Part shown: one piece after another, positions 148-31,768 of the stretch
Layout of the letters: every line of letters starts with the position of its first letter
Numbering within the stretch: the first letter of the stretch is position 1
Source of the DNA: an uncultured Bacilli bacterium
Lineage (GTDB): Bacteria > Bacillota_I > Bacilli_A > RF39 > UBA660
Assembly: GCA_947627675.1 (NCBI GenBank)
Contig: CANQWY010000001.1
Span: 5,334-69,333, forward strand
Length of the DNA: 64,000 bases
Reading direction: 5' to 3'
Notes under the pieces: model-generated
Databases searched by the model: none
What the model saw: only the letters and a program-made list of their open reading frames with translations
Told to the model about the DNA's origin: nothing
Position numbers and translations under genes: made by a program

Positions 148-164
148 TTAAAATATATTTATTA

Positions 165-190
165 GAAACTGATTTGTTATCAGTTTTTTT
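165..190 (+). terminator. Intrinsic terminator downstream of the ldt fragment
   Basis: GAAACTGAT-ttgtt-ATCAGTTTC hairpin followed by a T run (cagtttttttg). Confidence 0.65.
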
Positions 191-332
191 GTTGCTTATT
201 GTAAAATTTTGTAAATATTAGGAAGGGTTGTTTACAATTTTTATTATTGATGATAAACTTGTAATGTAAGAATATAAATATGGTAGGAAGATGTATGTTC
301 TTACTTCTAGAATATTAATAGGAGGTGTTAAT

Positions 333-632
333 ATGGCAAGTGGTAATGGAACTTTTATGATGGATCCTGCAGCAGTTCAGCAAAGTGGAACAAATTTCCA
401 AAATTTTTCGATTAGATATAGCACAGAGATGAATAATTTACGCAATGTAATAGAAGATTTAGGCCGTTGCTGGAAATCCGAAGATTATAATCAGTTTCTT
501 CAAATTTATCAACAAAATGCTGAAGTTATTCAACAAATGAGTAAGGCATTTGCATCTTTTGGTGAAGTTTTAACAACAACTGGTACTAATGCAGTACAAA
601 AAAGTGAAGATTTAAGAGCTTCATTTAAATAA
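333..632 (+). CDS. WXG100 (ESAT-6/EsxA/YukE-like) family small helical protein, 99 aa
   Basis: Start revised to the ATG at 333, preceded by the AGGAGG RBS; the track start at 291 has no RBS. The length is about 100 aa. The central segment DLGRCWKSEDYNQF aligns with the DLKSMWEGASSEAF core of YukE/EsxA, with WXG degenerated to WKS. The N-terminus FMMDPAAVQQSG resembles the conserved I-V-PEEL region. Confidence 0.55.
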   Translation: MASGNGTFMMDPAAVQQSGTNFQNFSIRYSTEMNNLRNVIEDLGRCWKSEDYNQFLQIYQQNAEVIQQMSKAFASFGEVLTTTGTNAVQKSEDLRASFK

Positions 633-652
633 TTTTATAGGAGGAATAATAT

Positions 653-973
653 ATGAATGGTACATCATTTGACCATGGTAAGGCAGTTAGCGATGCTGAA
701 CAAATTTTATCTATTGCTAATAGAGTAGAGTCTTTATTTGGAGAAACTGATACAGAAATCGCAAAGATACAGCAATATTGGCAATCATCTACATCTCAAG
801 ATAGTGCAGGCAATGCCATTGCTCTTTATAATAGCTATAAGGCTAATTTTACAAGCTTTATAAATCAAATAAAGACAAAAGCAAATGAAATATATCGATC
901 TAGTGAAACTTATACAGAGGTTGAAAATCAAGCTAATAAAAATGTTGAATCTGGTTATCGTATTAATAGTTAA
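653..973 (+). CDS. WXG100-like / Lap-like small helical protein, 106 aa
   Basis: Strong RBS (TAGGAGGAATAATAT-ATG). About 100 aa, with a central Trp (QQYWQSSTSQDSAG) in a predicted helix-turn-helix. It forms a tandem pair with the preceding WXG100-like gene. Confidence 0.45.
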   Translation: MNGTSFDHGKAVSDAEQILSIANRVESLFGETDTEIAKIQQYWQSSTSQDSAGNAIALYNSYKANFTSFINQIKTKANEIYRSSETYTEVENQANKNVESGYRINS

Positions 974-1061
974 TATATTGCATTCTATGCAATATATTGT
1001 AAATAAAAGAAATATTTCTTTTATTTACAATATATTTACATAGTATTAATAGGAGGAAAAA

Positions 1062-1550
1062 ATGGCACAAATTACAAGCTTATTGCAATGTTTTGATGTT
1101 AATATCGCAAATAAATATATATCTAGTTTAGATCAAGTTATATCTGAATTAAAATATAATAAAGAAAATATATCATCAAAGTGGGAATATTTTGGAAAAG
1201 ATACATTTTATTTTGGAAATTGTACTCCAATACAAGATAAAATGACAAATATTTCTAGTAAAATAGATGAAACTATTAAGAAAATTCAAAATATTGAAGA
1301 TAGCATTATGAAAAATTGTTTGATACAAAGAAGACAAGATTTGCAAAGCTATATTGTTTATTGTGACGAAATGATAAAATCATTAAATGGAAAAACAAAA
1401 AATACTACTACTCTTATAGGTTCCAATAGCGATTACCAAACTTTTTTAAGTTCTATAGAGAGAAAAAAACAATCGTGGGCAGATAAAAAAAGAATAGCCG
1501 AAGAAGAACTTACAGCAGTAAGAAAAGAAGTAGCAAAATATTATGCATAG
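1062..1550 (+). CDS. Hypothetical helical protein, 162 aa, in the size range of T7SS adaptors/chaperones (LapA2/EsaE-like position)
   Basis: Strong RBS (AATAGGAGGAAAAA-ATG). The sequence is largely predicted helical/coiled-coil. I recognise no motif; placement in the operon is the main evidence for a role. Confidence 0.5.
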   Translation: MAQITSLLQCFDVNIANKYISSLDQVISELKYNKENISSKWEYFGKDTFYFGNCTPIQDKMTNISSKIDETIKKIQNIEDSIMKNCLIQRRQDLQSYIVYCDEMIKSLNGKTKNTTTLIGSNSDYQTFLSSIERKKQSWADKKRIAEEELTAVRKEVAKYYA

Positions 1551-1573
1551 ATTTTATGGGAGGAGTTGTTAAA

Positions 1574-3385
1574 ATGAGTTTAGGGAATGATTATATTTGG
1601 TATTATAATAGTAACAATATTGAAGAATGTAGCAGCATAGTAGAAGAACTACAAAAGAAAATGATTGATCTAACTAGTGAAAATTATAGTGTTTCTGATA
1701 TTTTGAAAAATATAACGAGAGATTTATCTAATATAAATGATTTTAGTAGTATTGCTAATAATTTTAATGTAGCGATTACTTCATTAGATGAATTAAAAAA
1801 AGATTTTGATACTACAGTAGCGTTAATTGATGATATAAGAACTAAAAATATTGAATTAGAAAAAAGTGCTAATTCAAATATTGACAATGCTTATAATTTA
1901 AGTGCTAATTTTTCTTTTGATAAAACAAATATTCAAAAAATAACACTAGATGCAACTGAATATAGCAAGCTGAAAAATTTTTTTGGAGTTAATAACACAA
2001 GCAATAGCAGTTCTGCTTCAACAGTTGCTACGCCTTTAGTAGCGGGTGCTACAAATCTTAATAATTATTTTTCTAATGGGAATATTAGTTTACCTAAATC
2101 TTCAAATAATAATTTAAAAAGTTCTAGTGTTACAAGTGCAGGAACTATTTCTTTAGCTGCTGGAATTTTAGATCCTACCACTGGAAAGATTGAAACATTT
2201 ACTCCAAATAAAGAAGCAGTATTTAGTAATAATAATGATAATAAAAATAATACTCCTAAAAGTACAAATACTAATAATATTTCATCCAAAAAGGAAATGA
2301 CATCTGACAATAAAAATACAAAAGATAGTACTACAAAAGTAGTAAATAAAAGTACTAATTCTATTAATAATATTACCAGTAGTACTAATAATATCTCAAG
2401 TAATACCAAGAGCAAAACTTCTCCTTCTGTTGCTGCCGTTATCACAACAAGTGGTGCTACTAGTTCAAAGGCTGTTAAAAAAGCAGTTTCTAATATTTCA
2501 CAAAAAAGCATAAAGAAAGAATTTTCTTCTAGTGAGGTTATAGAACCTAAAATAAAGGATACTTCAACAGTTAGCAGAGTTCCTAATTTTGATAATAAAG
2601 ATAAGTTGTTTGAAGAATTAAAACCAAATACAAGTGACAGAAATGATACAATTAAAGATTTTATTAATAAAAATAATATTAATTTTTCTTCTAATAGTAG
2701 CACTAGTCCATCTAAACCTTCTCAAGATAATAATTCTAATACAGTATCTAATAATGTGACTGACTCTAATAATTCTACTTCTAATTATTATACTAATTCT
2801 GGTTTTACCGGCAATACAAATGCTTCAGCTAGTAGTAATGTCAATTCTTCTAATTTAAATAATAACAATGGATATTATAAAATGAACAATCAGCCAGCTG
2901 CTTCTTCTGGTGAAACTCAGACTACAGTTATACCAGAAGTTGATAGTAGTACTAATGTTGATGTTCCAGATACTTCAACTGATAATTTATTTAATGTTGA
3001 TTCTAATCTTGATGATTATATTGATGTTGATATAGATAAATCAGCAGATATTGGCAAAGCTTCAGGTATTGGTGGAGTTATTCCAATTGTGGCAGGAGTT
3101 GGAGCCGCAACAGCTGCTGGAATTGGCGCTAAAATATATAAAGACAGAAAAGAAAATAATGAATTTGATTTAGATGAAGATAGATTATCAAATGAAAATA
3201 AATTTTGGACAGACGAAGATGCTTCAGTAATTCATAGTGAAAAAGAAATATACTCTGATGATGCAGATGGTAATGTTAATTCTACGTATCAAGCTACTTC
3301 TAATGATTTGGATGATAATGATACTTGGAGTATGCCTGATGAAGTTGATAAAAATAGTACCATTGATTTACTAGAAGGCAATTAG
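1574..3385 (+). CDS. Large low-complexity protein with an N-terminal helical domain and a C-terminal Gly/Ala-zipper transmembrane helix; candidate LXG-like/TspA-TelE-like effector
   Basis: Start revised to the ATG at 1574, with the RBS GGGAGGAG 9 nt upstream. The N-terminal ~150 aa are helical. About 330 aa are rich in Ser/Asn/Thr/Lys. A single TM helix GIGGVIPIVAGVGAATAAGIGA has small-xxx-small periodicity. An acidic ~85-aa tail follows. No known catalytic toxin motif was recognised. Confidence 0.5.
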   Translation: MSLGNDYIWYYNSNNIEECSSIVEELQKKMIDLTSENYSVSDILKNITRDLSNINDFSSIANNFNVAITSLDELKKDFDTTVALIDDIRTKNIELEKSANSNIDNAYNLSANFSFDKTNIQKITLDATEYSKLKNFFGVNNTSNSSSASTVATPLVAGATNLNNYFSNGNISLPKSSNNNLKSSSVTSAGTISLAAGILDPTTGKIETFTPNKEAVFSNNNDNKNNTPKSTNTNNISSKKEMTSDNKNTKDSTTKVVNKSTNSINNITSSTNNISSNTKSKTSPSVAAVITTSGATSSKAVKKAVSNISQKSIKKEFSSSEVIEPKIKDTSTVSRVPNFDNKDKLFEELKPNTSDRNDTIKDFINKNNINFSSNSSTSPSKPSQDNNSNTVSNNVTDSNNSTSNYYTNSGFTGNTNASASSNVNSSNLNNNNGYYKMNNQPAASSGETQTTVIPEVDSSTNVDVPDTSTDNLFNVDSNLDDYIDVDIDKSADIGKASGIGGVIPIVAGVGAATAAGIGAKIYKDRKENNEFDLDEDRLSNENKFWTDEDASVIHSEKEIYSDDADGNVNSTYQATSNDLDDNDTWSMPDEVDKNSTIDLLEGN

Positions 3386-3395
3386 GAGAATAAAT

Positions 3396-3785
3396 ATGGA
3401 AAATAGAGAATTTTTACCTATAGGATCAGTTGTTTTATTAAAAGGTGGAGAAAAAAAAGTTATGATTACTGGTTTTTGTATGACACCGAATGAAAATAAA
3501 CATAAGATATACGATTATAGTGGCTGCTTATATCCTGAAGGAATCGTTAATTCTAATGAAATATTTTTATTTGATAATAAGCAAATAGCTGAGGTGTATT
3601 TTAAAGGATACATTGATGAAGAAGAGTCTGATTTTAAAAGTGAACTTAAAGAGACTATTAAAGAATTAAAGGTAGATGATGATAATAATATAGTTAGTGA
3701 AAATTTATCTGACACCATTTCAGTTATAGAAAATCCATTTGATCTTAATCAAACATTTGAACCTAAAATTAATATCTTTGAGTAA
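3396..3785 (+). CDS. DUF4176-like protein, 129 aa
   Basis: RBS TTAGGAGAATAAAT-ATG. The N-terminal LPIGSVVLLKGGEKKVMITG matches, from memory, the conserved start of DUF4176 proteins, a family commonly encoded next to T7SSb/LXG genes. An HMM search is needed. Confidence 0.5.
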   Translation: MENREFLPIGSVVLLKGGEKKVMITGFCMTPNENKHKIYDYSGCLYPEGIVNSNEIFLFDNKQIAEVYFKGYIDEEESDFKSELKETIKELKVDDDNNIVSENLSDTISVIENPFDLNQTFEPKINIFE

Positions 3786-3788
3786 GTG

Positions 3789-3823
3789 AAAATTATATAA
3801 TATAAGTTATATAATTTTTTTTT
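3789..3823 (+). terminator. Intrinsic terminator of the five-gene operon
   Basis: AAAATTATATAA-tataag-TTATATAATTTT hairpin followed by a run of 9 T. Confidence 0.7.
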
Positions 3824-3921
3824 AAATATTCATATAAATAATTTAGTCTTCTAATAAATCTTTGAGATATTTACTTTTTTTGATATACTATATATATATT
3901 ATTCATTAGGAGCTGGTTAAT

Positions 3922-5730
3922 ATGGAACAAAAAAATATTAGAAATTTTTCAATAATTGCTCATATAGATCATGGTAAAAGTACATTAGCTGATAGATTAT
4001 TAGAAGAATGTGGTTCTATTAGTGAGCATGAGGCTAAAAGTCAAATCCTTGATTCAATGGATATTGAAAGAGAGAGAGGAATTACTATAAAACTTAATAC
4101 AGCTACAATGAAATATAAATATAAAAATAAAGAATATACCCTTAATTTAATTGATACCCCAGGTCATGTTGATTTTTCATATGAAGTTAGTAGAAGTCTT
4201 GCAGCTAGTGATGGGGCTATTCTTGTAGTTGATGCTAGCCAAGGAATAGAAGCTCAAACTATTGCAAATTTATATCTTGCGATGGAGAATGATCTTACAA
4301 TAATTCCGGTTATAAATAAAATAGATTTACCCAATGCAGATGTCTTAAAAGTAAAAAATGAGTTGAAAGAGCTAGTTGGCTTTAGTGATGAAGAAATCAT
4401 TTTAACTAGTGCTAAAACAGGGGTAGGAATTAAAGAACTGTTGTGTGCAATAATTGATAGAATTCCATCTCCAAAAGGTGATAAAAATAATAAATTACAA
4501 GCTCTTATTTTTGATAGTATATTTGATAGTTACAGAGGAGTAGTAATCTCTTGCCGTATTTTTAATGGAATACTAAATGTTTCAGATACAATAAAAATGC
4601 ATAATAGTGATAAGGAATATATTGTAACAGAACTTTTTATTACAACTCCCAAAGAAGTCAAAGTTAAATCATTATCTAGTGGCGAAGTTGGCCATATTGT
4701 AGCCTCAATTAAGGATATTTCAACTGTAAGAGTTGGTGATACTATTACTTCAAAAGAAAACTATACTAATAAGGCATTAGCAGGATATAAACCAATGAAA
4801 CCTATGGTTTTTTGTGGACTTTATCCTATTGATAGTGGTAAATTTGAAAGTTTGAGAGATGCTTTAAATAAATTAAAGCTTAATGATGCTTCTTTAGAAT
4901 TTACTCCTGAAACTTCTTCTGCATTAGGATATGGGTTTAGATGTGGTTTTTTAGGTCTTTTACATATGGATATAATTAAGGAAAGAATATCTCGTGAATT
5001 TGGTATTGATATAATAACAACAGCGCCTAGTGTTATATATGAAGTCTTATATACTAATTTAGAAAAAGAAGAGATATCATCACCTAGTTTAATGCCTGAT
5101 AAAAGCCGAATTAAAGAGATTAGAGAACCATTTGTTAAGACGAATATTTTTACTCCAACGGAATATATAGGTCCAATTATGGAACTTTGTCAAGAAAGAA
5201 GAGGGAAATATATTTCTATGGATTATATTGATAAAACTCGAGTAAATATACATTACGAAATGCCTCTTTCTGAAATTGTATATAATTTTTTTGATAAATT
5301 AAAATCAAATACAAAGGGCTACGCTTCATTTGACTATGAATACGTCGGAAATAAAGCTAGTGATTTAGTAAAAATGGATATTTTGCTTAATGGTGAAATT
5401 ATTGATGCATTATCAACCATTGTTCATAAAGATTTTAGTTATACTAGAGGCAAAATGATAGTTGAGCAACTAAAAGAGGCTATACCTAGGCAGTTATTCG
5501 AAATACCTATTCAAGCTTCTATCTATAATCATGTGATTGCTCGAAGTACAGTTAAAGCATTAAGAAAAGATGTTTTAGCAAAATGCTATGGTGGAGATGT
5601 TACCCGTAAGAAAAAATTATTAGAAAAGCAAAAAGCTGGTAAAAAAAGAATGAAAAAAATAGGGAGTGTTGAACTTCCACAAGAAGCATTTATGAGTGTA
5701 TTGAGTGTAGATAGTAAAAATAATATCTAG
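3922..5730 (+). CDS. lepA: Elongation factor 4 (translational GTPase LepA)
   Basis: N-terminal [23 protein letters not shown]1 motif, [12 protein letters not shown], and a LepA-specific C-terminus. 602 aa. Confidence 0.95.
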
Positions 5731-5763: not shown

Positions 5764-6846
5764 ATGGTTAAATCTGTTTATATACATATTCCTTTTTGTA
5801 AAAATATATGTTCTTATTGTAATTTTTGTAAGATGTATTATAACGAAAAAATGGCATCTATTTATTTAGATGCTTTATATTTAGAAATTGTTAATAATTA
5901 TAAAGGAGAAAAAGTATCAACAATTTATATAGGTGGAGGAACACCGAGTGATTTAAGTATTAGCAATTTAAAAAAATTATTTAAAATTATAGAAATTTTT
6001 AATAAAGATGAAAAATGCGAATTTAGTTTTGAGTGTAATGTTGATATAGAAAAAGAAAAATTAATATTACTTAAAGATAATCAAGTTAATAGACTTAGTT
6101 TTGGAATTGAAACTATTAGTAAAAAAAATTTAAAGATAATTGATAGAAACCATAATAAAAAGATAATTAATGATAAAATAAAATTATGTAGAGATATTGG
6201 CTTTAGTAATATAAATGGTGATTTAATGTATGCTTTTGATAATGAAACTATGGAAGAGTTGAAAAATGATATTAATTTTATGTTAAGCCTTAATTTAGAG
6301 CATATTTCAACATATTCTCTTATAATAGAAAAGCATACTAAACTATACTTAAATGGAGCTAAAAACTGTGATGAAGATTTAGACTATAAAATGTATAAGA
6401 CAATTCATAATTTATTACTAAAAAATGGATATATTCATTATGAAGTAAGTAACTTTTCTAAAAATAATTTTTCTTCCTTACATAACCTGACATATTGGAA
6501 AAATGAAGAATATTATGGTTTTGGTTTATCTGCGAGTGGTTATATAGATAATATTAGATATACTAATACTAAAAGTTTTAACAATTATATTCAGGGAATA
6601 TACAAATATGAGGTTGAAAAATTGGATAAATATGATAAAATTAATTATGAGATAATTTTAGGATTGAGGCTAAGGAATGGTGTTAACCTAAAAAATTTTT
6701 TTCATAAATATAATGTTAATATTGAAGATTTATTTTTTATTAATGATTATTTATCTTTGGGTTATCTTATTAAGAATGATAATCTTTATATTCCTTACAA
6801 TAAGTGGTATGTAATGAATAGTATTTTAGAGAGGTTTGTGAAGTAA
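5764..6846 (+). CDS. hemW: Radical SAM heme chaperone HemW (coproporphyrinogen III oxidase-like)
   Basis: CKNICSYC radical-SAM CxxxCxxC motif. It lies immediately downstream of lepA, as is typical in Firmicutes. The start is probably the ATG at 5764; the track uses the GTG at 5752. Confidence 0.8.
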   Translation: MVKSVYIHIPFCKNICSYCNFCKMYYNEKMASIYLDALYLEIVNNYKGEKVSTIYIGGGTPSDLSISNLKKLFKIIEIFNKDEKCEFSFECNVDIEKEKLILLKDNQVNRLSFGIETISKKNLKIIDRNHNKKIINDKIKLCRDIGFSNINGDLMYAFDNETMEELKNDINFMLSLNLEHISTYSLIIEKHTKLYLNGAKNCDEDLDYKMYKTIHNLLLKNGYIHYEVSNFSKNNFSSLHNLTYWKNEEYYGFGLSASGYIDNIRYTNTKSFNNYIQGIYKYEVEKLDKYDKINYEIILGLRLRNGVNLKNFFHKYNVNIEDLFFINDYLSLGYLIKNDNLYIPYNKWYVMNSILERFVK

Positions 6847-7430
6847 TGATGGATAAAGTACAAGTATTTAAAACAGAAATAGGGTACATTGAAGATAAAA
6901 ATATAAGATTAAGTTTAGAGAATATGATTAATAAATTACCAGACTATTTTTTTAATATTGAAGCATCATCAACTGGTAAATATCATCCCTCTTATACTTT
7001 AGGAGAGGGCGGCTTAGTTAGGCACACTAAAGCTGCAGTTAGAATCGCCTATGAACTTTTATGTGATCCTTTAATAGGTGATAAATATACTCCTAAAGAA
7101 AAAGATTTAATGATTATGGGTTTAGTATTACATGATGGATTAAAACACGGTCTTGATATGGACAAGTATACTAAATTTGATCATCCACTTATAATGGCTA
7201 AATATATTGAAGATAATAAAAGCGACCTTTTTTTAGAAAATAATGAGGTGGAATTTTTAAAAGAAGTTATTTCTAGCCATATGGGTCCTTGGACAATAAA
7301 TTATAAAGGTGAAGATGTATTGCCAAGACCTAAAAATAAGTTTCAGAATTTTGTTCATATGTGTGATTATTTAGCAAGTAGGAAATGTATTTTATTTGAA
7401 TTTGATAGTGACAACAACATAATTAATTAA
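6846..7430 (+). CDS. HD-domain phosphohydrolase
   Basis: H...HD motif (LVLHDGLKHG) and length 194 aa. Confidence 0.65.
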   Translation: MMDKVQVFKTEIGYIEDKNIRLSLENMINKLPDYFFNIEASSTGKYHPSYTLGEGGLVRHTKAAVRIAYELLCDPLIGDKYTPKEKDLMIMGLVLHDGLKHGLDMDKYTKFDHPLIMAKYIEDNKSDLFLENNEVEFLKEVISSHMGPWTINYKGEDVLPRPKNKFQNFVHMCDYLASRKCILFEFDSDNNIIN

Positions 7431-10039: not shown

Positions 10040-12631
<2,592 letters not shown>

Positions 12632-12654
12632 TAAAAAATCACCCTTTTTTATTC

Positions 12655-12683
12655 TTTACAAGTTTCTCCTATTTTAATATAAT
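12655..12683 (+). promoter_or_regulatory. Sigma-A-like promoter for the pilin gene pair
   Basis: TTTACA, a 17-nt spacer, then TATAAT, about 50 nt upstream of the pilin RBS (AAGGAAAG). It lies in the divergent intergenic region shared with the ATPase gene. Confidence 0.5.
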
Positions 12684-12731
12684 AAATTATATAATAGATT
12701 TTGAACATTTTCAAGAAGGAAAGTTGAGTTT

Positions 12732-13400
12732 ATGAAAAAAAGAATGAAAAAAAACGGTTTTGCTATGGTTGAAGTTTTAATCGCGGCAGTTAGTGTGATT
12801 TCAATTTTTGCTCTTTTATACAATACAACGTATCCAATAATAGGTAGTTATAATACTATTGAAAAGTATGATGATCTTGATAGTAAGTATGTGGCTTTTT
12901 ATATAAAAGAAATGTTAGAAACAGATAGTAATTTTTCTGTTGGAAGTATATCTTTTAATAATCCAGATTGTGCTAATACTTGTAGTATATATAAAACATA
13001 TGCTTATAAAGTAGATAGTGCCGGCATAGACATAAAGATTAATGATGTTGATACTATAAATGATCATTATCTATATAAAAATGAGCTTTGTAATCAATTA
13101 ACAGAGTCAAACAATACAAAAAATAATCAATATTTTTGCAATAAATATATTACAGGTGCTGAAGTTACTAATATTTATGTTACTAAGTACGATGTTTCTG
13201 AATTTAAAGGAGCAGTAAAAAATAGCTCTAGATTCTCCAGAGGTTTTAAAAATTATGTTAGTTATATGCCAAGTCATACTGCTGCTAGTTCTACTAAAAA
13301 AAATAATTATTATAGAATAATAGTTGAGATAGAGCATGATTCTTATAATACAGCGGATGATATTTATTATACTTATTCATCAATCGAGGTGAAAAAATAG
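12732..13400 (+). CDS. Type IV pilin-like / pseudopilin protein (class III signal peptide)
   Basis: N-terminus MKKRMKKNG|FAMVEVLIAAVSVISIFALL has a basic leader, Gly at -1, Phe at +1, Glu at +5 and a hydrophobic helix. Confidence 0.75.
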   Translation: MKKRMKKNGFAMVEVLIAAVSVISIFALLYNTTYPIIGSYNTIEKYDDLDSKYVAFYIKEMLETDSNFSVGSISFNNPDCANTCSIYKTYAYKVDSAGIDIKINDVDTINDHYLYKNELCNQLTESNNTKNNQYFCNKYITGAEVTNIYVTKYDVSEFKGAVKNSSRFSRGFKNYVSYMPSHTAASSTKKNNYYRIIVEIEHDSYNTADDIYYTYSSIEVKK

Positions 13401-14113
13401 TGAAAAAATTAAACAATAAAGGGATGACTTTAATCGAATTATTAGTCTCTTTTTCGATTGCTGCTACAATAGTTGTTTCAATGTTTAATGTCGTTATAAA
13501 CTATCAAAAAGAAGAATCTATTCAAGCAATTAAAAACGATATTATATCATATAAAAATACAATTACAAAAATAATTCAAACCGATATAATAAAAGGGGGC
13601 TTAAGAAGTGTACATTTAGATGTTAGAAATGTAAATAGTGGAGGTAATAATTCTACAGTTTATGAAATGATTTTTAGATTTAATAATAGATTGCCATATT
13701 GTAGTGGTAGTGATAATTATTGTAAATATAAGAATTTGACAATTGTTGCTAGTAATACTTCAGAAAACTATATTATGTATCAGGATATTAATATACGTGG
13801 GCAAAAACAAGACGTAAAATATTCTTTAATGGATGCTTCTAAAGGCTGCTTATTTGAAAAAGAAAGTGATACTTGTATTAGTTTGCAAAATATCTTAAAA
13901 TTTTCGTCTATCACAACTAATATAAATGTTACAACATCAGGAGATCCTTCTCTAAACAGTAATAATAATGCTGTTAAATATTCTGATGGAACAATAGGAG
14001 ATAATATTGCTAGATATTTTAAGCTTGATATTGCTATTAGTCACCCTGATCTTGGAGGAGAGTATCATATTAATCTAGTGACTCCCTTAAACTATCCCTA
14101 TTGCAAACCATAA
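13400..14113 (+). CDS. Type IV pilin-like / pseudopilin protein (class III signal peptide)
   Basis: The GTG start overlaps the upstream stop (TAGTG), with a GAGGTG RBS. N-terminus MKKLNNKG|MTLIELLVSFSIAATIVV has Glu at +5. Confidence 0.75.
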   Translation: MKKLNNKGMTLIELLVSFSIAATIVVSMFNVVINYQKEESIQAIKNDIISYKNTITKIIQTDIIKGGLRSVHLDVRNVNSGGNNSTVYEMIFRFNNRLPYCSGSDNYCKYKNLTIVASNTSENYIMYQDINIRGQKQDVKYSLMDASKGCLFEKESDTCISLQNILKFSSITTNINVTTSGDPSLNSNNNAVKYSDGTIGDNIARYFKLDIAISHPDLGGEYHINLVTPLNYPYCKP

Positions 14114-15010
14114 AATTAATAATACTATACAAATAGAAAGACTAGCTATTCTTCCTAATAAGAAATAACTATAATTTAATTTCTCTTTTTTTATAATTTC
14201 TTTGACTTGAAAATGAACACTTATTCCTCCAAAACTTAGGAAAGATGTTATTAAAAATACTTTGAAAAAAAGGCTAACATTTAAATTTTTTAGTGTAATT
14301 ATTCCTTTTGTCAAGTCAAATATTCCATAAATTATAGTTTTTATTAAACTGTTATCTATAAAGCTTACTAAAATATCTGAAAATGTAAAGAAAAAAATAG
14401 TATTTCCTAATATTAAAAGCATAACTTTAGCGCTATTGTAAAAAGAATTGGCAAGTGCAGATGAAAAACTTTCCTTATTTATAGTAGGAGGTATTTTTTC
14501 TATTTCAATTTGTTTCGGCCTTATTATAAATGCTAAAATAAAATTAGATAAATAGTGACAAAGTAATACGATATATGCAACTTTCTTACCATATAATATT
14601 GCAATAGTTCCCATTATAAATAGGGGATTAGAAAAATGAGTAAAAGTAAGAAGAAAATTAGCTTGATTTTTACTAATTACTTTCTTCTCTAAAAAAGATG
14701 TTGTATATTTAGCCCCGCTTGGGAATCCAGATAAAATACTCATTATAAGTATAAAGGAACTAGATCCAGATATATGAAAAACTTTTAAGAATAATTTATT
14801 AAATAAAGACCCTAATAATTTTATAAAACCATAATTTATTAATAAATCAGAAATAGTATAAAAGAAGAAAATAGCAGGAAATAGATTATTCTTAAATATA
14901 TTAATAGCTTCTAGAATATCTTGAAAAATATAATTTGGATTTAATATTGTATACATCAAACATATTAATAAAATAAATATGATTATAAAAGATTTTATTT
15001 TTTTTAACAT
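14087..15010 (-). CDS. Polytopic membrane protein, YlbJ-like (sporulation integral membrane protein / nucleoside-recognition Gate-domain family)
   Basis: About 8 TM segments. It is divergent from a ylbL-like gene, mirroring the Bacillus subtilis ylbJ/ylbL neighbourhood. It has no prepilin-peptidase zinc or Asp motifs. Confidence 0.4.
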   Translation of the reverse strand: MLKKIKSFIIIFILLICLMYTILNPNYIFQDILEAINIFKNNLFPAIFFFYTISDLLINYGFIKLLGSLFNKLFLKVFHISGSSSFILIMSILSGFPSGAKYTTSFLEKKVISKNQANFLLTFTHFSNPLFIMGTIAILYGKKVAYIVLLCHYLSNFILAFIIRPKQIEIEKIPPTINKESFSSALANSFYNSAKVMLLILGNTIFFFTFSDILVSFIDNSLIKTIIYGIFDLTKGIITLKNLNVSLFFKVFLITSFLSFGGISVHFQVKEIIKKEKLNYSYFLLGRIASLSICIVLLILWFAIGIV

Positions 15011-15055
15011 ATTTTACCTCTTTTTTGCTATAATTAAACATAAAGGAATGATTTT

Positions 15056-16069
15056 ATGCTTAGTAAAATATATAATTATTTAAAGAAAAGTATTCGAGAA
15101 AATATTGTAGCAATTTGTATCTATATTTTTTGCCTTTTTATTATTCTCTTTCCAGTTGATTATTATATAATAACTGGAGGTGGAAGTTTTGATGCTAAAG
15201 ATAAGGTTAGCATTAAAACAAACAAAAAAATTAAAGGTAGTTTTAATATGGCATATGTTTCTGAAATTAGAGGTACTATTTTTACTTATTTACTTAGTTA
15301 TGTAATACCGAGTTATGAAAGAGAAAGTATGGATGATTATAGAAGTAATAATAACGAAAATATAGCAGATATAGAATTTAGAAATACTTTATGGCTAAAT
15401 GAAACTAATAATAATAGTATATTTGTTGCCTATAGCAAAGCTAAAAAAGATATATCTATTAAATCTTTAAAAAATTACATTTTTTATATTGATGATAAAA
15501 GTAACACAAACTTAAAAATTGGAGATGAAATAATTAGTGTTGGAAATACTCAAATAAAAGATTTAGATTCTTTAAAAAATATAATAAATAGTTATCATGA
15601 TAAAGAGAAAGTTCCTATTAAAGTCATACGAAACAATAAAGAATATGATAAATATGCTTATATTTATACAATTGATGGAGTTAAGTATATTGGAATTAGT
15701 TTATTAGAAGATATTATATATAATACAGTACCAAAAGTTAAATTTAATTTTAAAAAGGGTGAATCTGGTCCAAGTGGTGGGCTTATAATGGCTCTACAGA
15801 TTTACAATATGTTAGTTGATAAAGATATTACTAATGGTAAAAAAATAGTTGGTACTGGTACTATTGATAAAGATGGCACAGTTGGAGAAATTGATGGAGT
15901 TAAATATAAGTTAGCCGGAGCAGTAAAAAATAAAGCTGATATATTTTTAGTACCTGCAGGTAGAAATTATAAAGAAGCAATAAAAGAAAAGGAAAAGAAT
16001 AATTATAATATCAAAATTATAAAAGTTAATAATTTTGATGATGCATTAAAAAAGCTTAATAAGAATTAA
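15056..16069 (+). CDS. SepM/YlbL-family PDZ-Lon-like serine protease
   Basis: N-terminal TM, a PDZ-like middle region, and a C-terminal Lon-type S16 motif (ESGPSGGLIMALQIYN ... GTGTIDKDGTVGEIDGVKYKLAGAVK). Confidence 0.7.
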   Translation: MLSKIYNYLKKSIRENIVAICIYIFCLFIILFPVDYYIITGGGSFDAKDKVSIKTNKKIKGSFNMAYVSEIRGTIFTYLLSYVIPSYERESMDDYRSNNNENIADIEFRNTLWLNETNNNSIFVAYSKAKKDISIKSLKNYIFYIDDKSNTNLKIGDEIISVGNTQIKDLDSLKNIINSYHDKEKVPIKVIRNNKEYDKYAYIYTIDGVKYIGISLLEDIIYNTVPKVKFNFKKGESGPSGGLIMALQIYNMLVDKDITNGKKIVGTGTIDKDGTVGEIDGVKYKLAGAVKNKADIFLVPAGRNYKEAIKEKEKNNYNIKIIKVNNFDDALKKLNKN

Positions 16070-16180
16070 TTATGCTAAAATCTAAACATGAATAGCTTAA
16101 AAAAGTTATCTATATACGATTTTAGTCTTTTTATTATGAGTTTATAGTATTAAAATAAGTTAAATTTATTTTATTTTAAG

Positions 16181-16210
16181 TTGACGGGTTACTAATTAAT
16201 ATATTATAAT
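16181..16210 (+). promoter_or_regulatory. Sigma-A-like promoter for the giant pilin gene
   Basis: TTGACG, an 18-nt spacer, then TATAAT, about 30 nt upstream of the GGTGG RBS. Confidence 0.5.
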
Positions 16211-16239
16211 TTTCTTATAAAATATGGTGGTTAGATAAT

Positions 16240-19158
16240 ATGGAAAAGTATAATAAAATTAATAATAAAGGTTTTACATTGATTGAGGTTATTGCAGCAG
16301 TTGCAATATTAGGAATTTTAAGTGGTACAGCAATTACGGGTGTTTCTCGATATGTTAGTAATTCACATGAGGAATATTGTACGTCCCAAGCTGATATGCT
16401 AGAAATAGCAGGACGTGACTATTTTAATGATAATAATACATTGCTTCCATTAACAATGGGCGGAAGAAATTGTGTTAGCCTCCAAACATTGATTAATAAT
16501 AAATATATAGAGACAATGAAAGACTACAGTGATAGTGTTTGTAATGTAAATAATAGTAAAGTATGTACGATGAAACATATAGCAAGTGGCTATATATATT
16601 CAACATACTTAGATTGTAATAGATGTAACAATTATAATAAAAGCAGCCAAGATGATTTAAATGAAAGTAATGTAAGCACACCAACAATTTCTTATATTGC
16701 AGATACAACTCCAGCTGGAAGCTGTACCAATGCAGTAAATAAAGATATAACAGTAACAATAAAATTTAGTGATAGTAAACATAAAATAGTAAGTTATTCA
16801 TATACAGTTTACCAAAAAACAAATTCAGGTGATGTGGCAGTAGAAACAATAGATTATAGAGAATACAAAAATAAAGATATAAAAGTAAAACTAAATAGAA
16901 AGGGAACTTACTATATAGTAGCAACAGCATATAATTCAATAGGGAAAAAAGGAGAAGAGAAAAGTTGCGACTATGTACTTAGATATAATTTAAATTGTAG
17001 CAGTCAAATTGAAATAAGTGCTAAGAAAAAAGAAACAGGAGCCAATCTTTCTAGACAAACATGGATGAAAGGGACATTACAAATTACTGTTAAAAAAAGT
17101 GGTGATGTTGAAAGTTATGATGTGTACATAAGTAAAAGTAATGGAACTTCTGGAGCCTCATTTGGAGCATATCAAAAAGTAATATCACTGGCAACTGCTC
17201 AAAGTAGAACTATAACCTATAGTAGTAGTGAGACAGGAAAATATAGAGTAAAAGTAGTTGCTTATAATGATCAAGGTGATACATGTACAAAAGGAGGAGA
17301 TTCAACATTTGAATATTGGCAAGATAATACAGATCCTACTTGTACAACTGTGGGAGCACCAGGTCGCTGGGTGAATTACAATGTTACATTAACAGGAAGA
17401 TGTTCAGATCCTCATAGTGGATGTGATAATTCTAAACCTGCTTCTAATTATCTTTCCTATGAGTATGATGGCTATGCTAGTGCTGGGCGAGTATATGATA
17501 ATGTAGGTAATGTTGGTTATTGTAATGATGTGTGGATTGGAATTGATAAAACACCTCCAACATGTGAAATAGAGCTTGATGGAGATGAAGGAAATAATGA
17601 TTACTATATAAGTGATGTTACTGCAAATCTAAGTTTTGAAGATCCAGGTGAAATAACAAGTGAAGCAGAAAACTATGGAATTTCAACTTCAAGTTCACCA
17701 ACTTATAACGGCAGTCAAACTTATACTCATAGTTCTAATACAAATAATTATGTTAATGTTTATGGATATATTAAAGATAATGCCGGTAATACTGGAAAAT
17801 GTAGTGAAAAATTTAAGTTAGATAAAACACCTCCAACATATAGAAAAAATTCTGTTCAGGGAACAAGAGTTGGTAGTGGTTATGCCGATGGTTCAATGTT
17901 ATCAGTTACTTGTAGTGATGTTGGTAGTGGACCTATAAATACTAGTGATCAAGTTTATTTTTACGGTTCTGAAGCAACATTAAATGGGTATTGTGAGGAT
18001 AAGGCTGGTAATGTCTCAGATGAATATGATATAACATATCATAATTGTCCAAATAGCTTGTGTGGTTATGACGTAGATTATAATATAAGATGGAATTGCT
18101 ATAATTCTTATGGGAATCTAATATCTTCTCCATGTGAGTCAAGTAGCAATTATTTTCCAGCATGTTGTATGCAAGCTGAGAATTACTGTAGTGGAGAGTC
18201 GAGTTCATCATGCGGAGTAAAATCTAGAACAAAAAAAACATGCTGGCATCAAAGTAGTTGTCAAAGCAATACTACCACTTCCCCACCTAAAGTTAATGAC
18301 AAAACACCTCCAGGCTGTCCTAGTGTTTCTTCAGATTATTCGCCTAATTCAAAAGGTTGGACCAATAAAAATGTGAAATTAACATTTTCATTTACATCAG
18401 ATACAAAAAAATATACATTCTATACTAAAGAACAAAGCAGCTCATCTTGGAAGAATAATGGTACTAAAAATGTTTCCACAAAAAGACAAACTATATCACA
18501 AGAAGGAATTATAAGTACAAAAGTTGATGTATATGATGCTAGTGGAAATAAAAAGACTTGTACTTTTACAGATAAATATAAAATTGATAAGACAGCTCCT
18601 TACACTCCCTACATTGATAAAAATGACACAAAAAATATTGATGGTGAGACAGTAAAAGTAAACTATTATGGGGATTGTGATAAAGCTTGTGCTAGCGCAA
18701 ACCCTGGTAATAAGAATAGTGCTTCATTGCAAAGTAGTGGTAAAACCTGTTTTACTGACTTAAAATGTAGTGTTGGTGCAAAATCAAAAGTGGCTGCAGA
18801 ATGCGTTTATAGTAAAGATTATTCTTGCGGTACTGTAAAAGTTGTTAAAAAAGATAGTACTGATAATACTCCTAATGTTTCTGGTATTTGTACAGATAAT
18901 TCAGATACATATGGATATCAATACTATAATTGTGTTAGAAAAGAAGGCTCAACAACTTTTTCAGATCATACTATTAGAAAAGTTCAAATTACAGATTGTG
19001 CTGGCAATAAAAGTAAAGTACTTACTATTTCTGAATTAGGTGCCCACATTTATGGAATAGGCTTAAAATCTTATTATCAAATTTCAAATAATAAATGGAC
19101 ACTCAGAAGTGGAAAAACAAGACCTAGTAGCTTCACCTCTAGTTGTTATTTAAACTGA
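16240..19158 (+). CDS. Giant modular type IV pilin-like protein (972 aa), Cys-rich with repeated Ig-like modules
   Basis: N-terminus MEKYNKINNKG|FTLIEVIAAVAILGILSG is a class III signal with Glu at +5. About 950 aa of Cys/Ser/Thr/Asn-rich sequence follow, with four recurring DKTPP/DKTAP module boundaries (IDKTPPTC, LDKTPPTY, NDKTPPGC, IDKTAPYTPY). Confidence 0.75.
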   Translation: MEKYNKINNKGFTLIEVIAAVAILGILSGTAITGVSRYVSNSHEEYCTSQADMLEIAGRDYFNDNNTLLPLTMGGRNCVSLQTLINNKYIETMKDYSDSVCNVNNSKVCTMKHIASGYIYSTYLDCNRCNNYNKSSQDDLNESNVSTPTISYIADTTPAGSCTNAVNKDITVTIKFSDSKHKIVSYSYTVYQKTNSGDVAVETIDYREYKNKDIKVKLNRKGTYYIVATAYNSIGKKGEEKSCDYVLRYNLNCSSQIEISAKKKETGANLSRQTWMKGTLQITVKKSGDVESYDVYISKSNGTSGASFGAYQKVISLATAQSRTITYSSSETGKYRVKVVAYNDQGDTCTKGGDSTFEYWQDNTDPTCTTVGAPGRWVNYNVTLTGRCSDPHSGCDNSKPASNYLSYEYDGYASAGRVYDNVGNVGYCNDVWIGIDKTPPTCEIELDGDEGNNDYYISDVTANLSFEDPGEITSEAENYGISTSSSPTYNGSQTYTHSSNTNNYVNVYGYIKDNAGNTGKCSEKFKLDKTPPTYRKNSVQGTRVGSGYADGSMLSVTCSDVGSGPINTSDQVYFYGSEATLNGYCEDKAGNVSDEYDITYHNCPNSLCGYDVDYNIRWNCYNSYGNLISSPCESSSNYFPACCMQAENYCSGESSSSCGVKSRTKKTCWHQSSCQSNTTTSPPKVNDKTPPGCPSVSSDYSPNSKGWTNKNVKLTFSFTSDTKKYTFYTKEQSSSSWKNNGTKNVSTKRQTISQEGIISTKVDVYDASGNKKTCTFTDKYKIDKTAPYTPYIDKNDTKNIDGETVKVNYYGDCDKACASANPGNKNSASLQSSGKTCFTDLKCSVGAKSKVAAECVYSKDYSCGTVKVVKKDSTDNTPNVSGICTDNSDTYGYQYYNCVRKEGSTTFSDHTIRKVQITDCAGNKSKVLTISELGAHIYGIGLKSYYQISNNKWTLRSGKTRPSSFTSSCYLN

Positions 19159-23774: not shown

Positions 23775-24998
23775 ATGCAATTTACTAAACTTACTGAAGA
23801 AGAATTTAGAAATTTTTATAATACAAGAGATGAAAGAACATTTCTACAGACTGTTGAAATTGCTAAGTTAAGAGAAAGAGCAGGCTGGGAAAGTCATTTT
23901 GTCGGTGTTAAAAAAAATAATAATATTATTGCAGCAGCAATGCTCGTTTCTAAAAAGCGTCATTTCGGTAAAAAAGAGTTTTATTCACCTAGAGGTTTTC
24001 TCCTAGACTATAATGATTTTTCCTTACTTAATTTTTTTACGAATGAATTAAAAAAATATGTAAAAAATAATAATGGTTATCAGTTTAGAATGGACCCATA
24101 TATTATAAATGTTCAAAGAGATAGTACAGGTGCCGAAGTAAAAGATGGTCTAAATAACTTAAAGATTAAAAAAAGTTTAGATAAATTAGGATACAAAAGA
24201 GTTCCCAATAAAGAAATGGAACAAGTTTTATGGATGTATGTATTAGATGTTTATAATAAAAGTGAGGAAGATATTTTAAAAAATATGAAACCAAATACTC
24301 GAAATACTATAAGAAAAACTTTAAAAAATGGAATAGAAATTAAAGAATTAAAAAAAGAGGATTTAAAGGAATTTTATAAAATAATGGTAGAAACAGGCAA
24401 AAGAAAAGGATTTTCAGTTAGAAATTTAAAGTATTATGAAGATATGTATGATTTATTTAATAAAAGAGGAGAGATTAAATATTTAATTACAAAGCTTGAT
24501 TTAAAAAAACATATAAATTTATTAGAAAAAGAGAAAAATAAATGTATAGAAGAAAAAAATAATTTAAATGAAGCAAAATACAATGACGGAAAGAAAAAAG
24601 CTCTAGATAAGCAAATTGAAGGTATAAATAAACGTATAAAGCAAGCAGAAGAAATTATTAAAAAAGATGGGAGTATTATTACATTATCTGGTTCTATGTT
24701 TATGTTGACTCAACCTGAAGTTGTCTATTTATCTAGTGGAAATTACGAAGAATATATGTCGTATAATTCTCAATATTTAATTCAATGGGAAATGATTAAA
24801 TATGCTATTAAAAATGGATTTAAACGATATAATTTTTATGGTATAACTGGCAATTTTGATAAAAATGATAAAGATTATGGAATATATGAATTTAAAACTG
24901 GTTTTAATGGTTATTGTGAAGAGTTAATAGGAGAATATGTTATGCCTACATCTATTTTTTACTATATTTTTAATATTATTCATAAACTAAAAAAGTAA
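23775..24998 (+). CDS. FemAB-family peptidoglycan interpeptide-bridge aminoacyltransferase
   Basis: 407 aa with Fem family architecture: two GNAT-like lobes around a coiled-coil insert, and the motifs SPRGFLLDY and YNFYGITG. Confidence 0.75.
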   Translation: MQFTKLTEEEFRNFYNTRDERTFLQTVEIAKLRERAGWESHFVGVKKNNNIIAAAMLVSKKRHFGKKEFYSPRGFLLDYNDFSLLNFFTNELKKYVKNNNGYQFRMDPYIINVQRDSTGAEVKDGLNNLKIKKSLDKLGYKRVPNKEMEQVLWMYVLDVYNKSEEDILKNMKPNTRNTIRKTLKNGIEIKELKKEDLKEFYKIMVETGKRKGFSVRNLKYYEDMYDLFNKRGEIKYLITKLDLKKHINLLEKEKNKCIEEKNNLNEAKYNDGKKKALDKQIEGINKRIKQAEEIIKKDGSIITLSGSMFMLTQPEVVYLSSGNYEEYMSYNSQYLIQWEMIKYAIKNGFKRYNFYGITGNFDKNDKDYGIYEFKTGFNGYCEELIGEYVMPTSIFYYIFNIIHKLKK

Positions 24999-25104
24999 TT
25001 TTTTAATTAAAAATTTTAAAAAGTATTTAATGTAAAAAATTACTAAGTTAAAAATTAAATAATAGCTCATAATATTAGTGTAGTTTGTTTAGGAGATGAT
25101 TTTA

Positions 25105-26088
25105 ATGAAAAAAAGATGCAAACTACTTGTATTATGGGCTTTTCTTCTTTTTATAGTACCTATAAATATTTTTGCATACTCTGATTACATAGTTCCTGGT
25201 GGTGAAAATGTTGGAATAGAAGTAAGATCAAAAGGTGTTTTAGTAGTAGGTTTTTATAAGGTTGATGATAGCTTTGTTGCTAGAGATAGTGGTTTTTTGG
25301 TTGGCGATTCTATTACTAAAATAAATAATAAAGAAATAAATTCTATTGATGAGATGGTTAATGTAATTAAAGAAAATAAAAGCAAGAATATTAAATTTAC
25401 TGTAGATAGAGATGGTATTGAGAAAGTTATTGAAATGAATATGAATTTTGATAATGATGGGATATACAAAACCGGTATGTATGTTAAAGACAGAATTGTA
25501 GGTTTAGGTACATTGACATATATAGATCCTAATACAAAAAAATTTGGTGCTTTAGGGCATGAAATAGATGAAAAAACAACAGCTGAAAAATTTGAAATTA
25601 AAGATGGGAAAATATTTAAATCTGATGTCACAGGAATAGAAAGAAGTGAAAATGGTAATGCAGGTGAAAAAAACGCCACATATGATTCAAATACAGTATA
25701 TGGGAAAATAATTGAAAATAAAACATCAGGAATATTTGGTGATTATATTGACGATATTCCAACAGAAGGAACTCTTAAAGTTGCAAGAAGTGATGAGGTT
25801 AGGACGGGAGAGGCGACTATTAGAACAGTTATAGAAGATAATAAGGTTGAAGAATTTAATATTAATATACTTAAATTAGATAATAACAGTGATACTAAAA
25901 ATATATTATTTGAAATAACTGATAAAAAGCTTCTTTCAAAAACAGGTGGTGTAGTTCAGGGAATGAGTGGATCTCCAATTATTCAAAATAATATGATTGT
26001 CGGAGCAGTTACCCATGTTATTGTAAATGATACAACTAGAGGATATGGTATTTTTATTACAACAATGCTTAAGGAAGGAGAAAATTAA
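25105..26088 (+). CDS. spoIVB: SpoIVB-like peptidase (S55) with PDZ domain
   Basis: Signal/TM N-terminus, a PDZ region, and a C-terminal GMSGSPIIQNNMIVGAVTHVIVND segment matching the SpoIVB catalytic Ser region. The start is moved to the ATG at 25105 (RBS AGGAG). Confidence 0.65.
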   Translation: MKKRCKLLVLWAFLLFIVPINIFAYSDYIVPGGENVGIEVRSKGVLVVGFYKVDDSFVARDSGFLVGDSITKINNKEINSIDEMVNVIKENKSKNIKFTVDRDGIEKVIEMNMNFDNDGIYKTGMYVKDRIVGLGTLTYIDPNTKKFGALGHEIDEKTTAEKFEIKDGKIFKSDVTGIERSENGNAGEKNATYDSNTVYGKIIENKTSGIFGDYIDDIPTEGTLKVARSDEVRTGEATIRTVIEDNKVEEFNINILKLDNNSDTKNILFEITDKKLLSKTGGVVQGMSGSPIIQNNMIVGAVTHVIVNDTTRGYGIFITTMLKEGEN

Positions 26089-27109: not shown

Positions 27110-27733
27110 ATGAAAACAAAGAATCTTAAAGTTGAAAAAAATATGTTAGGTTTAGCCTGTCTTACCTTAATACTAGTAACAAATAGTTTTGAAAATAATT
27201 TAAAAGACAATTGTTTAATCATGTATGATCATCTTCATAAATATACAGATGATAATGGTTTTAACATCTATAAACAAAGTGAAGAAGAAACTATTGAAGG
27301 ATTTCATAAGACTAATAGTATTATCAAAAAAAGTGAGGAAGCTATTTTAATAGACGAATTAAATTTATTAAAAATCACTGATAATATTAGTACTTTAACA
27401 AATATAATGGAAAAAAATAAAGACTTTATTCAATATGAATATAAGTATAAAAGATACTTTGAGGTTAGAAATAATAAGTATATTATTATTGATGATTACT
27501 CTTTTTCAAATGATATTAATCATGAAAATCTAACTGGTAGAATTAGAAATGTAAAATACAAATATAAAGCTTATAAAATAGTAGATAACAATGGTGAAAA
27601 AGAACTTGTTGAAAGTCCTTTAGTAGATAATATTATTGATATAAAAGATAGTTATCCTTATTTTAAAATATGTACTTATAAAGTAAAAACTTACTCTGAT
27701 CCATATATTTTAGGTTATCAGAAAACAAAATAA
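27110..27733 (+). CDS. Hypothetical secreted/lipoprotein-like protein
   Basis: N-terminal hydrophobic segment with a Cys (LGLACLTLILVTNS). I recognise no domain. Confidence 0.4.
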   Translation: MKTKNLKVEKNMLGLACLTLILVTNSFENNLKDNCLIMYDHLHKYTDDNGFNIYKQSEEETIEGFHKTNSIIKKSEEAILIDELNLLKITDNISTLTNIMEKNKDFIQYEYKYKRYFEVRNNKYIIIDDYSFSNDINHENLTGRIRNVKYKYKAYKIVDNNGEKELVESPLVDNIIDIKDSYPYFKICTYKVKTYSDPYILGYQKTK

Positions 27734-31687: not shown

Positions 31688-31724
31688 TAAATTTATAAGC
31701 AATTTCTGGTAAATAGCAAAATTT

Positions 31725-31768
31725 AAGGATTGTAATCTGTAAATTTACAGAGAACAGTCCTTTTAATT
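31725..31768. terminator. Long imperfect hairpin with a T tract between convergent genes (DUF1540 gene and deoB)
   Basis: AAGGATTGTAATCTGTAAA / TTTACAGAGAACAGTCCTT followed by TTTTAATTT. Confidence 0.55.

Follow-up and report, generated by a model that had tools for sequence, protein, structure and literature searches.

A five-gene cassette encoding WXG100-type and DUF4176 proteins in an uncultured Bacilli bacterium, a candidate stand-alone type VII secretion substrate module

Substrates of type VIIb secretion systems (T7SSb) can be encoded away from the core secretion locus, as are TspA, TslA and SAG0230 (PMC10765036). The TspA module of Staphylococcus aureus comprises LapT1, LapT2, the DUF4176 protein SACOL2601, TspA and TsaI, with LapT1, LapT2 and the DUF4176 protein encoded together at one distal locus (PMC11322744), and TspA has been reported to stay associated, once secreted, with the cell that made it (PMC10765036). 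A class of membrane-depolarising T7SSb toxins that lack any enzymatic domain is well established; it includes TelE (PMC10434224) and EsxX (PMC12744356), and also TspA and TelD. TelD, from Streptococcus intermedius GC1825, is encoded in a module with LapD1, LapD2, TipD and the small DUF4176 protein MQE10_09270 (PDB 9DCS). DUF4176 proteins were recently characterized as toxin-specific T7SSb chaperones (Gkragkopoulou et al. 2025, PMC12478183); TelD, a membrane-depolarising toxin, depends on MQE10_09270 for its stability and its export, small members of the family are proposed to bind the membrane-inserting helices of depolarising toxins, and the clients characterized so far are all toxins (PMC12478183). 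A cassette of five genes (here g1 to g5) that resembles such modules was analysed in a window of 64,000 nucleotides (nt), a chromosome segment of 26% GC from an uncultured Bacilli bacterium (contig CANQWY010000001.1). It is flanked by pheT and a YkuD L,D-transpeptidase gene (ldt; read on locus L004) upstream and by lepA and a radical-SAM hemW-like gene downstream, and we consider it probably, if not securely, a stand-alone T7SSb substrate module located away from any core locus.

All five genes are on the forward strand: g1 at 333-632 (99 amino acids, aa), g2 at 653-973 (106 aa), g3 at 1062-1550 (162 aa), g4 at 1574-3385 (603 aa) and g5 at 3396-3785 (129 aa). The intergenic spacers are 20, 88, 23 and 10 nt in that order, and every start codon is preceded by a ribosome-binding site (RBS) reading AGGAGG (AGGAGGT at g1), GGGAGGAG or TAGGAGA. 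An alternative in-frame ATG for g4 at 1556 is less likely, judged by the position of the RBS. The tight spacing and strong ribosome-binding sites indicate that g1 to g5 are co-expressed. Folding revealed an AT-rich hairpin with a T-run on either side of the cassette. The left one (164-196, forward strand; stem 164-188, -8.8 kcal/mol, z -2.5) is likely the terminator of the upstream L,D-transpeptidase gene and thus the left cassette boundary, and the right one (3788-3828, forward strand; stem 3788-3819, -9.3 kcal/mol, z -2.7) is a terminator before lepA. Neither was called by a consensus terminator scan, because the scan requires three G-C pairs and these AT-rich stems hold too few. Two overlapping sigma-70-like promoter candidates at 209-259 on the forward strand (TTGTAA-18-TACAAT, and TTTACA-17-TAAACT with TG; 9 of 12 consensus matches each) are weak, being consensus matches in sequence of 26% GC. 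An earlier note on this DNA, made from the sequence alone, had described five same-strand genes, packed closely behind strong GGAGG-type ribosome-binding sites and bracketed by terminators; all five were present exactly where it had placed them, with spacers of 10-88 nt, an RBS before every start and both terminators recovered by folding.

Profile searches identify g1 as a member of the WXG100 family. Its product matched Pfam PF06013 with 35.2 bits (cutoff 27.3) over residues 8-86 and 79 of the 86 profile positions, and NCBIfam TIGR03930 with 41.0 bits, just under the cutoff of 44.85. The core reads D42-L43-xxx-W47-K-S49-xxxxx-F55, the DLxxxWxGxxxxxF core with WXG changed to WKS that the earlier note had claimed. 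By the same profiles g2 is only WXG100-like: its matches to PF06013 (19.6 bits, E 1.1e-3, full-length) and TIGR03930 (22.8 bits, E 7.6e-5) both fall below cutoff. Of the view that the first two proteins are of WXG100 type with a central Trp, the Trp holds for both (W47 in g1; W43, in the motif W43-Q-S, in g2), whereas family membership holds for g1 and not for g2. At 99 and 106 aa, both lengths fit the WXG100 size of about 100 aa. The last 30 aa of g2 contain two YxxxE motifs (residues 81-85 and 87-91; P = 0.012 by shuffling), and g2 may carry the targeting signal, with g1 as a secreted partner or targeting factor. A profile search with the Lap families (DUF3130, DUF3958, DUF5082/YwqH-like and DUF5344) gave no match at E<=1 for g1, g2 or g3; in the positive control, Gracilibacillus locus L008, the same profiles matched YwqH-like and DUF5344 proteins.

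The family assignment of g5 is unambiguous: it is a small member of the DUF4176 family, as had been guessed. It matched PF13780 (DUF4176) with 101.5 bits (cutoff 25) across the full 74-position profile, with the domain at residues 6-80 and an acidic C-terminal extension beyond it, and aligned with PDB 9DCS over residues 5-81 (E 2e-12). Its 129 aa place it within the small DUF4176 class of 70-130 aa (PMC12478183). Because DUF4176 is now characterized as a T7SSb toxin chaperone family, g5 is by analogy most likely a cytoplasmic chaperone of g4 and not an immunity gene; the immunity-type slot that the arrangement had suggested for the small downstream gene does not suit a family of toxin-specific chaperones (PMC12478183). 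In a reference-genome scan the closest genomic relatives of g5 were found at two Gracilibacillus loci only (44-47% identity). The T7SSb flavour of the cassette proposed earlier is borne out by the WXG100 protein g1, the weaker g2, the DUF4176 protein g5, and the position of g5 relatives directly downstream of EssC in a canonical T7SSb locus.

The putative cargo, g4, can be divided into an N-terminal helical domain, a long middle region, one hydrophobic helix and a C-terminal tail, all encoded on the forward strand. The N-terminal domain (1574-1915, about residues 1-114) has helices at residues 4-34, 40-52 and 58-111 in an AlphaFold2 (AF2) model and could, on that model, be a T7SS targeting or shaft domain. 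The middle region (1994-3058, residues 141-495, 355 aa) is of low complexity and presumably disordered; Ser, Asn and Thr make up 48% of it vs. 18% of housekeeping proteins. Tandem Repeats Finder reported only trivial repeats and no long tandem repeats in this region, and a repeat-built stalk was rejected on that basis. The hydrophobic helix (3062-3133, residues 497-520) is Gly/Ala-rich and is the sole segment of g4 above 1.2 on the 19-residue Kyte-Doolittle scale (KD19; maximum 1.86). It contains GxxxAxxxG twice and AxxxAxxxAxxxA, with no GxxxG, and would be the membrane-inserting element and the likely client site of the DUF4176 protein. The tail (3134-3385, stop included; residues 521-603, 83 aa) is strongly acidic (25 D/E vs. 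7 K/R), contains Trp and Phe, and opens with a KIYKDRK cluster. The helix ends with K520, and 4 of the 7 residues from there to K526 are K/R, compared with two of the 15 residues preceding the helix. No Sec signal was found in any of the five proteins, and g4 belongs to no Pfam, NCBIfam or PHROG family. An antisense open reading frame (ORF) inside g4 (2065-2703, reverse strand, 212 aa) would encode a Leu/Phe/Val-rich string; it is without RBS context and was dismissed as a gene, being most likely a by-product of the Ser/Asn/Thr-rich low-complexity coding strand.

The third gene encodes a basic protein (pI 8.6) that was modelled by AF2 as three long antiparallel helices (residues 13-48, 54-115 and 122-161; pLDDT 77.5), in line with its earlier description as helical. 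Like g4, g3 has no Pfam, NCBIfam or PHROG family. It is not demonstrably a Lap protein from its sequence, and it may be a third helical partner or an accessory factor of g4.

From these features we infer how the proteins might interact, how g4 might be exported and how it might act on membranes. The products of g1 and g2, perhaps with that of g3, would be helical proteins that partner the N-terminal domain of g4 for export. Joined to g4, they would make up an elongated shaft of helices, on which the export signal would be presented to EssC, as in the complexes of EsxB, EsxC and EsxD with EsaD and of Lap1 and Lap2 with LXG toxins. A g5 dimer would act as a cytoplasmic chaperone shielding a helix in g4 that is hydrophobic or amphipathic (residues 497-520 being the most plausible), and would keep g4 stable and off the producer's own membrane before export. 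Once exported, the small-residue helix would enter a membrane, where it may oligomerise in a competitor as a depolarising toxin or stay in the producer envelope. Within the substrate-module reading, g4 could thus be either an antibacterial depolarising toxin or a producer-anchored envelope protein.

The results that weigh against a T7SSb substrate module concern the partners, the cargo, the missing immunity gene and the missing core locus. The canonical Trp-X-Gly is present in neither g1 (WKS) nor g2 (WQS); the Gly of this motif is also missing from many functional WXG100-like partners. The g3 product had no match to any Lap family, and fold searches with it returned generic, non-specific matches. 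The AF2 model of the g4 N-terminal domain is of low confidence (pLDDT 63.6), and the domain contains no LxG motif. Neither g4 nor its first 160 residues matched LXG PF04740 or WXG100 even at E<=5, and when the g4 N-terminus was aligned by hhalign with two Gracilibacillus LXG domains the probability was 0.45%, both profiles being thin. The LXG-type label that the earlier note had attached to the cassette is therefore better read as an analogy than as membership, with PF04740 absent at E<=5 and g3 in no Lap family. The sequence does not demonstrate that g4 is an LXG protein, and a very divergent LXG domain of the EsaD kind is compatible with these results.

The hydrophobic helix of g4 raises a further point. 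A strict glycine zipper, defined as (G/A/S)xxxGxxxG or GxxxGxxx(G/S/T) in a hydrophobic C-terminal region (PMC12744356), is absent from helix 497-520; the sole strict match in g4, S490-G498, lies mostly outside the helix, and two control LXG membrane toxins had 2 matches to each pattern. There is also only a single hydrophobic helix. The architecture proposed earlier for the fourth protein thus stood for the Ser/Asn/Thr-rich linker and the one Gly/Ala-rich helix and failed for the zipper in its strict form, while its N-terminal helices come from the low-confidence model. From g1 to lepA there is no membrane ORF and none of DUF443, DUF5085 or DUF600 type that could be an immunity gene, which is atypical for a membrane toxin, and the cassette contains no multi-pass membrane immunity candidate, a lack that had gone unnoticed before.

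These observations bear on the alternative that g4 is linked to the T7SS and is not a toxin. It would be an envelope protein exported N-terminus first, its C-terminal helix anchored in the producer membrane and its tail cytoplasmic, with the N-terminal helical domain displayed on the Ser/Asn/Thr-rich stalk and g5 keeping the anchor helix soluble before export. The absence of an immunity-like gene from the cassette favours this alternative, although immunity genes can be encoded elsewhere, and so does a single hydrophobic helix without a strict glycine zipper. The four K/R at K520-K526 vs. two before the helix also favour it, the positive-inside rule predicting N-out, C-in. The 355-aa middle region, 48% Ser, Asn and Thr, resembles wall-spanning linkers, but it is non-repetitive, unlike many stalks. 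Codon usage and chromosomal position are core-gene-like for the whole cassette, as would suit an envelope protein; we know of no surface protein, however, that is anchored at its C-terminus and whose insertion depends on a T7SSb. TspA is reported to stay associated with its producer after secretion (PMC10765036), which offers a parallel, but the characterized DUF4176 clients are all toxins (PMC12478183). Taken together, we regard an envelope protein of this kind as unlikely, though it deserves to be kept in view.

Homologue searches showed g3 and g4 to be near-orphans among billions of proteins. In a collection of 5.8 billion clusters, g3 found only itself, and a word search with whole g4 likewise returned only itself, the low-complexity linker having swamped the candidates; a word search with g4 residues 1-129 found no relatives. 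Exhaustive phmmer with residues 1-160 against 1.84 billion representatives returned repeat-protein noise and one credible distant relative (P0006). This is a complete stand-alone protein of 101 aa that aligns over its whole length with g4 residues 1-103 at 33% identity (E 5e-4 library-wide), and the two share the N-terminal signature G-N-x-Y-x-W-Y...EC. Its gene lies at 240-545 of a 719-nt contig (L003) from another uncultured organism, where the neighbouring fragments are uninformative. As P0006 is complete and aligned end to end, the N-terminal module of g4 can therefore occur by itself, as a protein of about the size of a WXG100 member. No loci were found in metagenome scans with the alignment of P0006 and the g4 N-terminus or with g1, nor in viral scans with g5, g3 or the same alignment, and a phage origin was rejected, the DUF4176 domain alone matching a PHROG. 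With about 15 billion proteins clustered at 90% identity, all window proteins checked, including LepA and GyrB, were singletons, and the host genome is outside the GTDB species-representative set as scanned; the lineage is barely sampled, because even LepA and GyrB are singletons at that identity.

With P0006 as a relative of its N-terminus, g4 could also represent an LXG-independent class of T7SS substrates with genuine WXG100-type partners. Such a protein would be a non-toxin, threaded through the T7SS and anchored in the producer membrane by its C-terminal Gly/Ala helix, with the DUF4176 protein guarding the anchor before export; the T7SS would thus serve to build a membrane protein displayed on the cell surface. 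A surface-anchored non-toxin would account for the lack of an immunity gene, for a charge pattern in keeping with the positive-inside rule, and for a long linker resembling a stalk. We hold this combined proposal to be improbable.

The strongest structure of the locus, which the earlier note had not noticed, lies between g2 and g3. A perfect palindrome of 21 bp at 991-1034 (forward strand) forms an AT-rich hairpin in the 88-nt spacer, which folds at -26.1 kcal/mol (z -6.9) and was as stable in 0 of 200 shuffles. Independent read-archive contigs all end at this palindrome, and because they all break there the breaks are taken as an assembly effect of the palindrome and not as a repeat. No Rfam matches were found, and a regulatory RNA was rejected for that reason. 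The palindrome may be a partial terminator or an mRNA-stabilising element that separates expression of g1-g2 from that of g3-g5, and it would probably lead to more g1-g2 than g3-g5 transcript.

Such a separation raises the alternative that the cassette consists of two units, in which g1-g2 would be a general secreted pair of the EsxA/EsxB type and g3-g4-g5 a separate module using other partners. The very stable hairpin in the g2-g3 spacer fits a boundary between units, but no clean T-run follows it, and a consensus scan gave no convincing promoter between it and g3, the sole candidate overlapping the RBS and start codon of g3. Of the proteins in the cassette, g1 is the most EsxA-like, and EsxA is described as universally required by T7SSb (PMC13355648); esxA, however, normally heads the core locus, which is absent here, and partners directly upstream of a substrate match the known modules. 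Two separate units seem to us the least probable arrangement of those considered.

EssC-, EsaA- or YukC-like proteins were not found among 30 scanned window ORFs (the ten longest, all of 330-421 aa and several shorter ones), which were housekeeping, pilus or sporulation genes or were without a Pfam family. No window ORF is longer than 972 aa, the window contains no paralogues of the cassette, and no T7SS core gene was found in the 3.3 kb upstream of the window. The source assembly appears fragmented (longest contig 70.7 kb), and for this reason the absence of a core from the window is uninformative for the genome. The earlier remark that no core lies within 60 kb thus held among the scanned ORFs; its view of this as unusual did not, since distal substrates are documented (PMC10765036). 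Nor is the lack of an enzymatic domain in g4, likewise taken as unusual, out of keeping with T7SSb toxins, as depolarising toxins without one were already established (PMC10434224, PMC12744356).

The missing core could also mean that the cassette is independent of a type VII machine, or an orphan relic, in a host without EssC. The products of g1, g2, g3 and g5 would then be cytoplasmic partners of a membrane protein of the tail-anchored type, or the module would be decaying. This would fit the lack of core genes among the scanned ORFs of the 64 kb and in the 3.3 kb upstream, but in a fragmented assembly an absence from one contig is uninformative, and distal modules are normal in T7SS-positive species. 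It would fit equally the degradation of WXG to WKS and WQS, the orphan status of g3 and g4, and a position embedded among housekeeping genes. None of the five ORFs is disrupted, however, all have a strong RBS and native codon usage, and WXG100 and DUF4176 proteins are tied to the T7SS in all characterized cases (PMC10765036, PMC12478183). We therefore consider independence from a T7SS very improbable. Native codon usage is seen in the GC content at third codon positions (GC3), which is 0.12-0.17 in the cassette vs. 0.14-0.15 in housekeeping genes, and recent horizontal acquisition was rejected on account of this similarity.

Elsewhere in the window, lepA follows the cassette at 3922-5730 (identity read from the ORF translation). 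A type IV pilus-like cluster occupies 10040-19158 and includes an unusually long T2SSE/PilB-type ATPase of 863 aa on the reverse strand, with a profile match limited to residues 8-391, and a 972-aa protein that opens with a prepilin N-terminal methylation motif and would be a giant pilin-like protein. Genes for a FemAB-family peptidyltransferase and SpoIVB (peptidase S55) at 23775-26088 indicate that the host is an endospore-forming Gram-positive bacterium with a branched peptidoglycan cross-bridge. A heat-shock operon on the reverse strand (43574-50086) contains, in order, hrcA, grpE, dnaK, a gene for an M3 oligoendopeptidase F (pepF-like) and dnaJ, with the pepF-like gene between dnaK and dnaJ. 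Cumulative GC skew peaks at about 32 kb, and gene orientation changes from mostly forward to mostly reverse at about 31000-33000, a pattern expected at a replication terminus or from a mis-join in a metagenomic assembly. ORFs of 194-307 aa without a Pfam family at E<=1e-5 are found at 6846-7430, 12732-14113, 14087-15010 (reverse strand) and 27110-27733.

If the substrate module works as proposed, the T7SSb repertoire would gain a cargo without a recognizable LXG domain, partners that resemble true WXG100 proteins more than they do the Lap families, and a small DUF4176 chaperone gene directly after that of a single-helix membrane-active protein with no linked immunity gene. It would then offer a clean test of the published, still hypothetical shielding of membrane-inserting helices by small DUF4176 proteins, and would help define the minimal features that mark proteins for type VII export. 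T7SS-type modules occur, as this cassette illustrates, in a spore-forming lineage that is very AT-rich and has hardly been sampled.

Among the described systems, the TelD module shares with the cassette small helical partner genes upstream, a substrate of the membrane-active type and a small DUF4176 gene downstream. TelD differs in having a recognizable LXG domain and partners of the Lap1/Lap2 families, and in its module a DUF443 membrane immunity protein separates the toxin from the DUF4176 protein. The cassette instead has a g4 without an LXG match, WXG100-type partners, a third helper of 162 aa and no immunity gene. The TspA module likewise contains a DUF4176 protein, and its locus is far from the ess core (PMC11322744, PMC10765036). 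TspA is membrane-depolarising, has a short glycine zipper and may remain cell-associated (PMC11322744, PMC10765036, PMC12744356). Unlike g4, it has an LXG domain and is followed by multiple tsaI (DUF443) immunity genes, and its partners fall in the same families as the Lap export factors of S. intermedius, which are described as WXG100-like (PMC11322744) and are not PF06013 itself.

The EsaD pre-secretion complex of S. aureus (EsxB, EsxC, EsxD, EsaE, EsaD and EsaG) resembles the cassette in that three small helical proteins are encoded upstream of its substrate; one of them is a true WXG100 protein and another has a C-terminal YxxxE (PMC10653861). The LXG domain of EsaD is too divergent for routine recognition and visible only to sensitive profile methods (PMC10653861), to which the N-terminus of g4 may be likened. 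EsaD is a nuclease, however; its chaperone, EsaE (DUF5081), is EspG-like, its immunity protein is of the DUF600 type, and EsaD itself is encoded inside the core ess locus without a DUF4176 protein. TelE of S. gallolyticus and EsxX of S. aureus ST398 are, like g4, large proteins with no enzymatic domain and a small-residue-rich C-terminal helix; their activity resides in that helix, and the telE operon includes a DUF4176 protein. Both have strict extended GxxxG zippers, LXG domains, and DUF5085 and multi-pass membrane immunity proteins, whereas g4 has a single helix with only GxxxAxxxG and AxxxA ladders, followed by an acidic tail of 83 aa and preceded by a low-complexity spacer of 355 aa.

The closest relatives of g5 are encoded in Gracilibacillus sp. 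D59 (L008; 44% identity), where the order of partners, substrate and DUF4176 protein is shared with the cassette. That locus encodes, in order, YukD-like, YukC-like, EssC, YwqH-like and DUF5344 proteins, a glycine-zipper LXG toxin, a membrane protein and a DUF4176 protein; a second module, LXG-DUF443-DUF4176, is next, and the two consecutive LXG modules, both of which end in a small DUF4176 gene, span L008 2796-13017. Unlike the cassette, the D59 locus has a full set of core genes, true LXG toxins and DUF443. No protein encoded there resembles g1 to g4, which also showed no similarity to the Gracilibacillus Lap and LXG proteins in pairwise or profile comparison. The membrane protein of the first D59 module (186 aa) has no Pfam match and may represent an unclassified immunity family.

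The general design of a cargo with helpers is already well described, and the gain from the present locus is incremental. Its unusual features are an orphan cargo and an orphan helper, WXG100-type and not Lap-type partners, a small DUF4176 gene directly after a single-helix cargo, the lack of an immunity gene and a strong internal hairpin. The cassette is better described as one that would work like an LXG or EsaD-type module than filed as such a module.

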